Shown here: one piece after another, positions 26,805 through 36,697 of the stretch
Layout of the letters: every line of letters starts with the position of its first letter
Position numbering within the stretch: position 1 is the first letter of the stretch
Source: a virus
Taxonomy: Duplodnaviria > Caudoviricetes
Strand: one strand, 5' to 3'
Length of the DNA: 64,000 bases
IMG/VR virus record: IMGVR_UViG_3300031555_003626
Coordinates: 160,001-224,000 of that record
Translations under genes and position numbers: made by a program
The notes under the pieces: model-generated
The model's input: the letters and a program-made list of their open reading frames with translations, nothing else
Databases searched by the model: none
Told to the model about the DNA's origin: nothing

Positions 26805-26862
26805 AGAGCCTATACTTATTTCTAACATAAATTTTGGGAATTTAAAAGTTGACAGTTAGGCC
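26805..26862 (+). ncRNA. Bulged-stem (Y-RNA-like) element 1, short
   Basis: AGAGCCTA-T-ACT-TATTTCT...AGT-TAGGCC. Confidence 0.7.
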
Positions 26863-26963
26863 AAAATTGAGATACTACTTTATTATAAGGCGGTGGCTTA
26901 TTTTGGTTTAGATCAAAAAGCTACCGTTATTTTATTTTGATTTTATTTAAAAGGAGATACATT

Positions 26964-28943
26964 ATGACTACTATTCAGAAGATTCTTATTTCTCGTCGTA
27001 TGCTTGTAGCAGATACTATTCCTACTAAGTCTGCTTTTAGACTTGAGGGCGCATATCTTAATGCGTTTCTTCTCGCTAACTTTGGTATTGTTGTAGATAA
27101 GCCTGAACTTCTTACTAAGGAAATGGTAAAGGACATCTCTGATGTTTATAAGCTTAACGTACCTAAGTCTTATTTCGCAAATCCTCAGGATACTAAGTTC
27201 TATACTGCTGAAGAGCTTCTTATAGAGCAGTGTATCTCTTATTTCCTTGCTTATGGTGCGGAGGATTCTCATGTTCACATTTTTGATAAGGAGCTTCCTG
27301 AGTACCCTGTAGGTGAGGAGATCAAGATTCGTGAGTTCCGTATTCTTGACGCCGACGAAGCAGAAGCCGAGCTTATGGAGATTACTAAGGCTTATGCTGC
27401 TTATAAGCGCCCTTGGGGCCTTGATGAGGCAGCAGAGTTCCTTGAGCTCTACAAGAATGGCTATTACAGATTTACCGAGATGCCTGTAAACTGTGGCGAC
27501 AACGCTGTTCTTATGCTCGGTGAGAACACTGATTTCGCACAGTTTCTCTTTAAGAAGGACGTTGTAAAGCTTTCTGTAGCTCGTTGTGGCGAGAAGAAGG
27601 AACTTTCTCTTGATGGCGCTACTCGTGGCCTTATCAAGGCAATTATTCCTCTCGTTAAGGACTGTCCTATGTCTAAGAAGCAGGCAAAGTATTTCAATAC
27701 TCTTGTCAAGCTTACCGGTTCTAAGGTAAAGAAGGCTTCTAATGAGGCATCTCCTAATAGACTTGCTCTTGAAAAGTTGAATGCTGGTGACGTTGTTGGT
27801 GCTGCAAAGATTTTTGCAAAGAGTGGTTCTCTTCTTGAGAGAAATCTTAAGTTCCTTCTTTCTCGTGCAAATCCTAGGGAGGCAATACAGATTCTCGACA
27901 TGCTTTCTAATGAGAACCCTGCTGTTCTTTATCAGATAATGTCTACTGTTCTTGCTGACAACGAGGAGGCTCGTACCTTCTCCTTCTACGCAAAAAATAG
28001 AATTAAGACTCATATTGAGACTGAGTACGAGGCTCGTTGGAGAAAGTCCAGACTTAATGACGCAACTAAGAAGCTTGTACACGATATGTGCTTTGAGAAG
28101 ATTGCTGAGCATTATGTAAACACTGAGTCTCTCCGTAAGGTTTACATCGCTCCTAATTTCTATAAGGTAGCAATGCCTGTTAATACTTCTGCCTCTGGTA
28201 AGGGTATCGACGTTCCTGCTACCGGAACTAGACTTCCTATCAACGGCACTAAGATCAGATCTTTCGTACATTGGGAGAATGCTTTCGATATTGACTCCTC
28301 TACTATCTACGAGTTTGGCGATGGCTCTCTCAAGATGATTAATTTTTGCAGTTATAATTACGAGAACTTCGATGGCGCTGCTCGCTTCTCAGGTGATATT
28401 ACTGGTCCTAAGGGTACTGAGTATTTCGACCTTGACCTTGAGTCTCTTAAGGAACAGGGTGTAAAAAGAGTAGTATTTACCTTCCATGGTTATTGTTCTA
28501 CTCTTGACTCCGGCGAGATTTATTGCGGTTACCAGAACAAGAATAACTTCAATACTAAGGCCTGGGATCCTAAGAACATTGAGCTTAAGATTCACGTTAA
28601 GGGTGAGAAGCGTGCCTATGTGGCATTTGCTATCGATCTTGAGACTATGGAGATTATAGTACTCAACCTGATGCGCGATGATGACTCTCGAGTTGTTTCG
28701 CCTAAGGACTTTGAGGCTATTAAGGCTTTCATGGATCCTGCAAAGCTTGAACTCAATATGGGTCTTATTGCTGAGTGGCGTGCAGCTGAGGTTGTTGAGA
28801 CCCCTGAAGAGGCCACTGTTATCTTCTCGGATGACTATGTTGTAAAGGAAGTGGAATTGGCAGAGAATGAGGTACCTGTACCTGCTCCTGTAGTAATCCG
28901 TTCCTTCGATATTGAGAAGCTTAACATGATTGCAAACGTTTAA
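26964..28943 (+). CDS. Probable Ro60/TROVE-like helical RNA-binding protein with C-terminal TerD-like domain
   Basis: AAGGAG RBS before ATG 26964; helical N-half with G.LLERNL.FLL; C-half W...DIDSS and FSGDIT...GTEYFDLDL (TerD-like); flanked by Y-like RNAs. Family call is from recalled motifs. Confidence 0.6.
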   Translation: MTTIQKILISRRMLVADTIPTKSAFRLEGAYLNAFLLANFGIVVDKPELLTKEMVKDISDVYKLNVPKSYFANPQDTKFYTAEELLIEQCISYFLAYGAEDSHVHIFDKELPEYPVGEEIKIREFRILDADEAEAELMEITKAYAAYKRPWGLDEAAEFLELYKNGYYRFTEMPVNCGDNAVLMLGENTDFAQFLFKKDVVKLSVARCGEKKELSLDGATRGLIKAIIPLVKDCPMSKKQAKYFNTLVKLTGSKVKKASNEASPNRLALEKLNAGDVVGAAKIFAKSGSLLERNLKFLLSRANPREAIQILDMLSNENPAVLYQIMSTVLADNEEARTFSFYAKNRIKTHIETEYEARWRKSRLNDATKKLVHDMCFEKIAEHYVNTESLRKVYIAPNFYKVAMPVNTSASGKGIDVPATGTRLPINGTKIRSFVHWENAFDIDSSTIYEFGDGSLKMINFCSYNYENFDGAARFSGDITGPKGTEYFDLDLESLKEQGVKRVVFTFHGYCSTLDSGEIYCGYQNKNNFNTKAWDPKNIELKIHVKGEKRAYVAFAIDLETMEIIVLNLMRDDDSRVVSPKDFEAIKAFMDPAKLELNMGLIAEWRAAEVVETPEEATVIFSDDYVVKEVELAENEVPVPAPVVIRSFDIEKLNMIANV

Positions 28944-29044
28944 TTAAAATAACTGGGCGTTAATTAATTTTAGCGCCCATAATAAAAAAAATATTTTGCT
29001 AAATTAATTAAAAATTACGTTTATTATATCGTATAATATAATAC

Positions 29045-29157
29045 AGAGCCAATGCTTATTTCTTTGCCTGTTAAGCCGTGTGTCGCAGGTTCGAATCCTG
29101 CCATCCCGCTGCAGTGGGATGTAGCTCAGTGGTAGAGCAACGATTATTAGCTTGGCC
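29045..29157 (+). ncRNA. Y-RNA-like element 2 enclosing a circularly permuted tRNA-Asn(GUU)
   Basis: GCCAA-T-GCT/AGC-TTGGC stem; order is anticodon loop, T arm, acceptor hairpin (CATCCCG/TGGGATG), D arm. Confidence 0.85.
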
Positions 29158-29210
29158 AAAAATTAATATTAAAGCAAAATTTGCTATTAATCTATCGTAT
29201 AATATAACAT

Positions 29211-29328
29211 AGAGCCAATACTTATTTCTTTAATGCTGGGGACTGCGATCGTAGGTTCGACTCCTGCCCCGCCGACCAATCGGTGGGTAGCCAAGCGGTA
29301 AGGCAGCGGTTAAATTAATAGTTTGGCC
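29211..29328 (+). ncRNA. Y-RNA-like element 3 enclosing a permuted tRNA-Pro-like domain
   Basis: GCCAA-T-ACT/AGT-TTGGC stem; T arm, CCCGCCG-ACCAAT-CGGTGGG acceptor, then D arm. Confidence 0.8.
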
Positions 29329-29337
29329 AAAAAGTTT

Positions 29338-29451
29338 AGAACCAATGCTTATTTCTTATGATTTTCCAGCTGGCCGTGCGGGTTCGATTCCCGTCGCTCG
29401 CAGAGCGGGTGTAGCTCAATGGTAGAGTTCCAGCTTTCATTTAGCTTGGTC
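29338..29451 (+). ncRNA. Y-RNA-like element 4 enclosing a permuted tRNA-Gly-like domain
   Basis: ACCAA-T-GCT/AGC-TTGGT stem; T arm, CGCTCGC-AGA-GCGGGTG acceptor, D arm, CCAGC/GCTGG anticodon stem. Confidence 0.8.
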
Positions 29452-29467
29452 ATATTTTGTTTAATAT

Positions 29468-29577
29468 GGGCTGATTAGCTTAGTGGTAAACCTTGGGTAG
29501 TTTCACATACCAAGTTAAGAGGCAGAGCCCCTCCCTTCAAAGGAGGAGACTCCGGTTCGACTCCGGAATCTGGCCCA
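29468..29577 (+). tRNA. Atypical tRNA with UCA anticodon (opal-reading) and D-loop insertion
   Basis: CCTCC-CTTCAAA-GGAGG anticodon arm; TCCGG-TTCGACT-CCGGA T arm; about 36-nt hairpin inside the D loop; no encoded CCA. Confidence 0.65.
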
Positions 29578-36007: not shown

Positions 36008-36093
36008 TTTATTTATCTTACTATTTAATACTAATTGTTCCGAAAGGCGCTCTAAGGCAGGGATGAAATGCCCCTGTCAATTAGTATTTTTAT

Positions 36094-36169
36094 GCTTCCT
36101 TCCTCTAGCGGTCAAGGAGTTCCGGTTCTCAGCCGGGCAACAAGAGTTCGAATCTCTTAGGAAGTACCA
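36094..36169 (+). tRNA. tRNA-Glu(CUC)
   Basis: TCCGG-TTCTCAG-CCGGG; CCA. Confidence 0.9.
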
Positions 36170-36234
36170 ATAATTTAAATTTCAAAATAAATATCGTATA
36201 ATATAATATATAAATTTATTAGGAGATACTTAGG

Positions 36235-36426
36235 ATGACACAGTTTCAGTTTGATTTGATTTGTAAGGTTATTGAGGGTGGCGCACCTGCTCTTGCGAAT
36301 GAGCTTTGCGGTGCTTTAGATAGTCTTGTTCAGTCTTATAATGAAATCGTAAAAGAAAATGCTGATCTCAAAATTCAGCTTGAGGCTATAAACGCTTCTT
36401 CTGAAGCAGCAGAAGCTACCGACTAA
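36235..36426 (+). CDS. Small coiled-coil protein
   Basis: Promoter motif plus AGGAG RBS. Confidence 0.7.
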   Translation: MTQFQFDLICKVIEGGAPALANELCGALDSLVQSYNEIVKENADLKIQLEAINASSEAAEATD

Positions 36427-36444
36427 ATTACAGTAAATAATTTT

Positions 36445-36501
36445 AGAGCTTGTACTTATTTCTTTGAAATATAATTGATATTTAATACAAACAGTCAAGC
36501 C
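36445..36501 (+). ncRNA. Bulged-stem (Y-RNA-like) element 5, short
   Basis: AGAGCTTG-T-ACT-TATTTCT...AGT-CAAGCC. Confidence 0.7.
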
Positions 36502-36524
36502 AAGTTATTTGCTAAATTTAATAT

Positions 36525-36627
36525 AGAGCTCGCGCTTATTTCTACTAACAAAAAGACTTCGGCCGGGTATGTGGACTTCCGTCCTGGAAGTTTGCAGGTA
36601 ACCTGGCATACATATTATAGTCGAGCC
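36525..36627 (+). ncRNA. Bulged-stem (Y-RNA-like) element 6 with a three-way-junction cargo
   Basis: AGAGCTCG-C-GCT-TATTTCT...AGT-CGAGCC. Confidence 0.7.
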
Positions 36628-36638
36628 AATTTTTAATG

Positions 36639-36697
36639 AGAGCCTATGCTTATTTCTCACATTATTTAGGATAATAGAAAGTATGGATAGCTAGGCC
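36639..36697 (+). ncRNA. Bulged-stem (Y-RNA-like) element 7, short
   Basis: AGAGCCTA-T-GCT-TATTTCT...AGC-TAGGCC. Confidence 0.7.

Follow-up and report, generated by a model that had tools for sequence, protein, structure and literature searches.

A covarying RNA handle with interchangeable, partly tRNA-like cargo is linked to the gene of a helical-repeat/TerD-domain protein in viral genomes

To our knowledge, no well-known particle apart from that of Ro60 and its Y RNAs has so far combined a ring-like protein with modular small RNAs that include tRNA mimics. In the bacterial systems composed of Ro60 (Rsr) and the YrlA/YrlB RNAs (RF02553; Chen et al. 2014, PMC4201824), a large protein built of helical repeats, with a C-terminal domain of metal-binding type, is encoded beside several small RNAs, the RNA termini form the stem that bears the protein site, and at least one of the RNAs has a T arm, a D arm and a closed acceptor module; the Ro60 site is defined by the motif GNCGAA(N0-1)G / CGAA (PMC4201824, PMC12135203). 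YrlA of M. smegmatis has a 7-bp acceptor stem, is cleaved by RNase P and gains CCA while bound by Rsr (PMC4201824). The Ro60 of Thermus phage phiLo, which is accompanied by Yrl1 and Yrl2 (PDB 9L5Y/9KOP; PMC12135203), is a canonical ring of TROVE and von Willebrand factor A (vWA) domains, and its Yrl RNAs hold the CGAA motif in a large internal loop. The locus described here lies in a 64,000-nucleotide (nt) stretch of viral DNA, referred to below as the window, which represents bases 160001-224000 of the 233,329-bp virus record IMGVR_UViG_3300031555_003626, rated complete. It comprises seven elements between positions 26805 and 36697, the analysis of which supports one covarying RNA family with a common handle and interchangeable cargo, and a gene (26964..28943, + strand) encoding a 659-aa protein predicted to contain an alpha-helical repeat N-terminal domain (residues ~1-390), a TerD-like beta-sandwich (~427-586) and a small C-terminal part. 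The handle and the gene product probably form an undescribed RNA-protein particle built on the Ro60/Y RNA plan, outside that family.

All seven elements lie on the + strand and have the form A-G-A-[5 nt]-bulged Y-[R-C-T]-TATTTCT ... [A-G-Y]-[complement of the 5 nt]-C; when the entire 233-kb genome was scanned, the complete pattern appeared at these seven places only, and a covariance-model search of the window with filters off (E <= 1) returned no further short copies. The window contains 10 occurrences of CTTATTTCT, where 2.0 would be expected. The terminal helix of 5 + 3 bp, with its single bulged pyrimidine (T in six copies, C in the remaining one), is part of the RNAfold minimum-energy structure of all seven. 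Copy 1 (26805-26862) is located in the leader of the gene and has the stem GCCTA/TAGGC, a bulged U, the pairs ACU/AGU, the UAUUUCU heptamer and a 30-nt AU-rich cargo (covariance model score 70.5 bits). Copies 2 (29045-29157), 3 (29211-29328) and 4 (29338-29451) are positioned after the gene, copy 4 starting 10 nt past copy 3, and carry the tRNA-like cargoes described below. The third group consists of copy 5 (36445-36501; short AU-rich cargo, stem GCUUG/CAAGC, 71.3 bits), copy 6 (36525-36627; bulged C, 27.6 bits), in which the cargo is a long GC-rich irregular hairpin, and copy 7 (36639-36697; short cargo), which scores 48.4 bits though it is outside the seed and abuts tRNA-Met at 36705. A first-pass annotation, made from the window's sequence, had placed seven copies at these coordinates on this strand and assigned them the stems GCCTA, GCCAA, ACCAA, GCTTG and GCTCG with one bulged pyrimidine each; all of this proved correct.

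Two further pairings can be drawn at the base of the handle. One would join the 5' AGA of all copies (26805-26824 in copy 1) to the UCU that ends UAUUUCU; the other would join the G to the 3' C, leaving an A bulged. All of these positions are invariant, which precludes covariation evidence for either pairing.

Covariation was analysed in this genome and in 13 viral loci fetched via the neighbouring protein (48-79% identity). When the 5' half was defined alone as GA-N5-N-RCT-TATTTCT, with no pairing requirement, an 8-nt complement was present at most 260 nt away for 61 out of 61 such halves, against 3.2 expected from shuffled 5-mers; these halves included 17 different 5-mers and all were on the gene strand. 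A covariance model built from 12 short copies aligned 77 matches, 62 of them distinct. In the distinct sequences the 5 + 3-bp bulged stem is composed of standard pairs in 100% of cells, with a few G-U, and six of the eight pairs show changes on both sides. Compensatory cells numbered 90 (22 +/- 3.6 in shuffles), and the covariation score of 0.545, compared with 0.215, was reached by no shuffle; sliding the 3' partner by 1-3 columns lowered the pairing to 11-61% and nearly abolished the covariation. UAUUUCU, the two adjoining pairs (C-G and U-A), the 5' GA and the 3' C are invariant. This alignment bears out the earlier proposal of a covarying stem with an invariant TATTTCT. A helix of free sequence around a fixed core, found on one strand and conserved on one side, fits an RNA recognised by a factor and does not fit an inverted repeat acting at the DNA level.

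The handle is linked to the gene in the other genomes as well. In each of the 13 viral loci handles on the gene strand flank the gene: the ortholog of copy 1 is about 150 nt upstream of the start, and the other handles are just downstream or among tRNA genes. A wider set of 19 distinct loci extends down to ~25% protein identity; in 18 of them RCTTAYTTY occurs on the gene strand, at most 450 nt upstream of the gene, in none does it occur on the opposite strand, and only 352 nt of upstream sequence is present in the sole exception. The cultured Lactobacillus phage LpeD, checked separately, has two handle copies upstream of the homolog orf166. Co-occurrence of motif and gene across phages, which had been put forward as a check of the first-pass annotation, thus extends to very distant homologs. 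A homolog in a GC-rich contig (L134, 33% identity) is preceded by GCCGA-U-GCU-UAUUUCU, and five others (L137, L135, L139, L140 and L142) by 1-3 copies of a variant in which the helix is continuous and the heptamer reads UACUUYU; in L139 the variant is assigned from its 5' strand. The form of the motif therefore tracks the protein clade, a bulged U and UAUUUCU being found at 33% identity and above and the continuous helix with UACUUYU at 25-28%, as would be expected for partners. The L135 homolog adjoins a gene for a type IV secretion system coupling protein (TraG/TrwB; L135:2588-4306), and the L140 homolog is 1.2 kb from an EndoU_bacteria RNase toxin gene (L140:6031-6465), so the family is not confined to phages. 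A reverse scan of viral contigs with the handle 16-mer revealed 37 loci with complete handles; where a record had a handle and no gene, the handle was at the contig end and the gene would fall outside, with one possible exception that is considered below. BLASTN and TBLASTN searches of named phages returned nothing closely related to this region.

The cargo varies both within the genome and between relatives. It is AU-rich and 29-31 nt long in copies 1, 5 and 7, whereas copies 2-4 contain a T arm, a closed acceptor stem of 7-8 bp and a D arm, joined to the handle via the region of the anticodon stem. In copy 2 the closed acceptor stem is 8 bp long and the anticodon-like hairpin has the loop CUGUUAA; in orthologs of its class the loop CU-NNN-AA is kept and the triplets vary (GUU, UUU, UUU, UCU). 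In copy 3, the 7-bp acceptor stem is followed by A-CCA, and the orthologs in L001 and L002 keep ACCA after the acceptor 3' strand in a stem that covaries. Copy 4 has a 7-bp closed acceptor and, like its class in general, a plain 6-bp connecting stem; its fold is clean and cloverleaf-like. Searches with Rfam YrlA (RF02553; gathering score 69) produced sub-threshold matches to copy 2 (43 bits, E 5e-7), copy 4 (31.9 bits) and copy 3 (24 bits), those of copies 2 and 3 covering only the tRNA-like part (model positions 23-86 and 29-81 of 114, respectively); the full-model match of copy 4 (29356-29458) begins past UAUUUCU and overruns the end of the element, and so does not coincide with the handle. 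At the gathering threshold Rfam matched none of the handle copies, and no Rfam 15 family covers the handle. The tRNA-like module typical of YrlA (T arm, D arm and a closed acceptor-like stem on a terminal stem) is therefore present in copies 2-4, where orthologs keep the fold, and absent from copies 1, 5, 6 and 7. The likeness to YrlA noticed in the first-pass annotation is borne out, as are the three short AU-rich and three permuted tRNA-like cargoes that it listed; the three-way junction assigned to copy 6 is not, the centroid structure being one long hairpin. In relatives the cargo may also be a minihelix of a T arm and an acceptor, and in one of them it is a tRNA-like structure in normal order, with a 4-nt 'anticodon' loop, whose acceptor end is closed by the handle. 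Such variety among copies and relatives indicates that the handle is modular and that the cargo represents tRNA mimicry, not a consistent set of tRNA genes.

Promoter-like motifs accompany part of the elements. The sequence GTATAATATAA was observed eight times in the window, always on the + strand (13727, 26765, 29031, 29197, 31323, 36196, 47982 and 52896), against 0.24 expected, and is probably the -10 region of the phage's own promoters. The TATAAT of the motif ends ~30 nt ahead of copy 1 (motif at 26765..26775, +) and 7 nt ahead of copies 2 (29031..29041, +) and 3 (29197..29207, +). Promoters a few nucleotides before copies 2, 3 and 6 had been noted previously; those of copies 2 and 3 stand, but promoter scoring found no promoter-like site before copy 6. 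Copies 4-7 have no promoter of their own and would need to be cut from longer transcripts. Between copy 1 and the start codon there is a terminator-like hairpin with a U tract (26889..26948, +; -18.5 kcal/mol, z -4.6), the 5' arm of which holds GCTTATTTT, a near-copy of the handle core. Its stem is kept with sequence changes in relatives, and a comparable hairpin is located after the upstream handles in L013 and in phage LpeD; the arm with GCTTATTTT could make it a protein-controlled terminator switch. The hairpin can be placed at L013:9915-9980 and L138:3549-3590, and the layout, in which a hairpin of this kind usually comes after the handle, is kept from this phage to LpeD, where the annotated start of orf166 falls inside the hairpin.

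The protein encoded at 26964..28943 is poorly covered by existing resources. A Pfam search assigned it to no family, with no match of the TROVE and TerD models at E <= 1; it matches only one PHROG, of unknown function, PADLOC has no model for it, and PDB searches with the sequence and with the family profile found no relative. The family is nonetheless large, with 945 representatives of 50%-identity clusters at E < 1e-3, annotated at best as "tellurium resistance-like". The predicted fold includes the TerD beta-sandwich, which is probably Ca2+-binding, and the helical-repeat domain has several invariant arginines. At the fold level, BFVD contains relatives in Campylobacter phages and in phage LpeD. 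The known members of the TerD family (PDB 2QZ7, 2KXT, 3IBZ) are different, being stand-alone proteins of ~190 aa from Ter operons without a known RNA partner, whereas the TerD domain here shares its protein with a helical domain of 400 aa and is accompanied by a linked RNA motif. Residues 270-565 match positions 395-701 of NCBIfam NF041916 (66.5 bits, E 1e-18; family cut-off 600 bits), which indicates that the module composed of the end of the helical domain and TerD has cellular relatives; the proteins of that family (MXAN_6230/SCO0854 RING domain-containing, Myxococcus and Streptomyces) differ in having 842 residues, a RING domain and no known RNA partner. A full-text literature search found no paper linking a TerD-domain protein to Ro60/TROVE or to Y-like RNAs, and a survey of jumbo phages treats phage TerD genes as parts of Ter systems and TROVE proteins separately (PMC7824862).

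The likenesses to Ro60/Yrl concern the general plan: a large helical-repeat protein with a C-terminal domain of metal-binding type is encoded beside several small RNAs, the RNA termini are predicted to form the stem for the protein, and some of the RNAs carry the T arm, D arm and closed acceptor module. The 7-bp acceptor stems and encoded CCA recall YrlA of M. smegmatis, and RNA repair enzymes are nearby in both systems. The differences concern the components: there is no TROVE signal and TerD takes the place of vWA; the site is a 5 + 3-bp bulged helix with UAUUUCU instead of GNCGAA(N0-1)G, the 5' strand of the handle reading AGA-N5-U-RCU-UAUUUCU in 62/62 distinct copies; many copies bear a short cargo unrelated to tRNA; and one is in a gene leader before a terminator-like hairpin. 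The genome has no TROVE gene, and the neighbour of the RNAs is the TerD-domain protein. The phiLo system is no closer, as no sequence homology to it is detectable. An ordinary Ro60 with an ordinary YrlA was rejected: three of the defining features fail, namely TROVE at the sequence level, vWA and the GNCGAA site.

We consider it reasonably likely that the elements act within a ribonucleoprotein, in which the helical/TerD protein is bound to the handle's invariant core and presents the cargo, with feedback through the leader copy. The seven elements would then be small structured RNAs plus one mRNA-leader copy, each with a handle of three parts, namely a freely varying 5 + 3-bp terminal helix, a bulged U and the invariant core; the core would comprise the pairs C-G and U-A, the unpaired heptamer UAUUUCU of the 5' strand, and GA and C as flanks. 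Once the product of the adjacent gene had bound this core, the particle could display its cargo. The tRNA-mimic cargo of three copies here and of many relatives, with its T arm, closed 7-8-bp acceptor and, in some copies, D arm, anticodon-like hairpin or encoded CCA, may engage host tRNA-handling enzymes or tRNA-directed nucleases; alternatively, it may bring RNA-repair enzymes to their substrates, given the gene of polynucleotide-kinase and HD type (PNK-HD) next door and the Rnl1-like and Rnl2-like genes elsewhere. The leader copy and the terminator-like hairpin imitating the handle core would provide feedback control of the gene.

Several points weigh against this reading. We infer transcription and processing of the elements into discrete RNAs, binding of RNA by the protein, and all of the functional roles, among them those of decoy, tether or repair scaffold proposed in the first-pass annotation. 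We know of no RNA role for TerD domains. The upstream position and the terminator-like hairpin would be equally expected of a purely cis-acting leader. Proximity to the PNK-HD gene is specific to a lineage, being seen in loci with at least 64% identity of the partner protein (L004, at 76%, excepted) and in none at 54% or below. Finally, a 230,252-bp record rated 100% complete (G002) has a single handle and no gene detectable by protein or by family profile; this handle (L062:682-745) is complete, has a short cargo and lies 726 nt from the end of its contig, within a tRNA array, and represents either a true exception or an assembly break.

A bolder version of the particle reading, which we put forward tentatively and would not yet expect to hold in full, describes a widespread class of ribonucleoproteins of origin independent of Ro60. 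The helical-repeat/TerD protein would read the handle and display tRNA mimics, some of them perhaps opened by RNase P into CCA-ended, two-piece tRNA-like molecules, and the particle would serve as a sensor, a decoy or a means of repairing damage when phages or mobile elements are in conflict with host tRNA-targeting nucleases, again with feedback through the leader. If the particle exists, an uncharacterised protein family gains an RNA-linked function and the catalogues a new structured RNA family; the purpose of tRNA mimics on such particles becomes testable, with LpeD as a tractable system, and it would be seen whether the Ro/Y-RNA plan had two origins or a single one obscured by divergence. 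The design would be the same, with a different handle and a protein unrecognisable as Ro60, in a family that ranges over jumbo phages, a cultured Lactobacillus phage and non-phage, mobile-element-like contexts.

Other explanations attribute the same features to different causes. The handle may act mainly in cis, as an attenuator or operator in the leader and a processing or stability signal in the tRNA array, without any stable particle. The presence of the motif upstream of the gene in nearly all distinct loci, the strong hairpin and U tract after it in this phage, L013 and LpeD, the imitation of the handle core by the 5' arm of the terminator and the need to excise copies 4-7, which are without their own promoters, from longer transcripts all agree with this; several copies, however, follow the gene or stand 7.5 kb from it amid tRNA genes, some come with their own promoters, and a leader has no need of elaborate, conserved tRNA-like cargoes. 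A leader operator also needs a binding factor, for which the gene product is the obvious candidate, so a cis-acting handle overlaps the particle more than it replaces it, and as the whole explanation we consider it unlikely. Much the same low probability is given to the suggestion that the protein is a true, extremely diverged Ro60/TROVE homolog, in which TerD has replaced vWA, and that the RNAs are genuine Y RNAs. The helical N-domain (~400 residues) has no clear fold match, and its longest alignments are all to Ro60; BFVD gave a phage TROVE protein at probability 0.92 for the fold of this domain, a value that helical repeats can reach by chance, and in Foldseek searches of the PDB with the whole model and with the N-domain Ro60 was outside the top 50 and was listed by VIA-align only. 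No TROVE domain (PF05731) was found in the six-frame translated genome, nor in 86 N-domains of the family at E <= 0.1. Comparison by hhalign with an alignment of 30 TROVE sequences, namely mycobacteriophage Bxz1 Ro and 29 relatives, actinobacterial only, gave a probability of 0.1% (E 0.46-0.47); a scan of genome contigs to widen this profile returned only actinobacterial Ro60 genes of 52-61% identity. A C-terminal vWA domain bearing the metal ion-dependent adhesion site known as MIDAS (PF25045) is likewise absent from the protein. Having no TROVE signal by sequence, the protein is not a demonstrable Ro60, though a ring-like plan common to both is possible.

The copies with tRNA-like cargo could also be circularly permuted tRNA genes, the handle marking the ends for cleavage and ligation to a circle, which would then be opened at the acceptor loop to yield functional tRNAs. 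As in permuted tRNA genes and two-piece tmRNA, the 3' part precedes the 5' part, the acceptor strands are adjacent, and one class encodes the CCA that ends the acceptor 3' strand. The copy 2 class retains a canonical anticodon hairpin (CU-NNN-AA) with its nick at 28/29 or 29/30, in the copy 3 class A-CCA still follows the 3' strand of the acceptor, and the phage has PNK-HD, Rnl1-like and Rnl2-like enzymes. Once its ends are rejoined, the copy 2 class regains an anticodon stem of 5 bp with a loop of 7 nt, but copies 3 and 4 do not; rejoining at all cut points in ARAGORN was too permissive, nearly any junction being accepted. Unlike in those systems, the acceptor strands are joined by closed loops of 3-4 nt, including UUCG, the open end is closed by a conserved handle and not by a bulge-helix-bulge, anticodon features are inconsistent and there is no tag reading frame. 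Most handles bear cargo without tRNA features, copy 4 has no anticodon loop, the anticodons of orthologs differ, with GUU duplicating the array's own tRNA-Asn, and the relative with tRNA-like cargo in normal order has the handle at the acceptor end and a 'anticodon' loop of only 4 nt. Permuted tRNA genes are, on this evidence, quite improbable. Least probable by far are DNA-level inverted repeats, such as the ends of small mobile elements or recombination sites, which short inverted repeats flanking variable inserts and dispersed in clusters would resemble. The arms differ between copies of one genome and yet match within each, with a few G-U pairs, the heptamer and the bulge are on one arm only, 61/61 copies are on the transcribed strand, promoter-like motifs are at a fixed distance and the cargoes are RNA folds; this idea was rejected.

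The neighbouring genes and RNAs add some context to the locus. The gene upstream (25786..26712, +) encodes a 308-aa protein with P-loop polynucleotide-kinase-like and HD phosphohydrolase domains, of the RNA end-healing type; it matches Pfam AAA_33 (2e-25), the NCBIfam bacterial Pnkp and PSTK kinase domains and HDIG/Cas3-HD. Genes for ligases like T4 Rnl1 and Rnl2 are outside the window (G000:C1:131999-132607 and 143526-144023), and no RtcB was found in the genome. The handles bracket a large tRNA array that includes a GOLLD RNA (RF02032; 35494-36007, 156 bits, above the gathering score), located between two handle clusters; a sub-threshold YrlA-like match of 27 bits (35547-35692) falls within it. 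The array also contains a sub-threshold match to RAGATH-33 (32042-32152; 43.6 bits, gathering score 120.4) and four segments of 134-196 nt (29586-29737, 30811-30944, 31447-31642 and 31861-32020) that the tRNA covariance model covers end to end as tRNA genes with large inserts.

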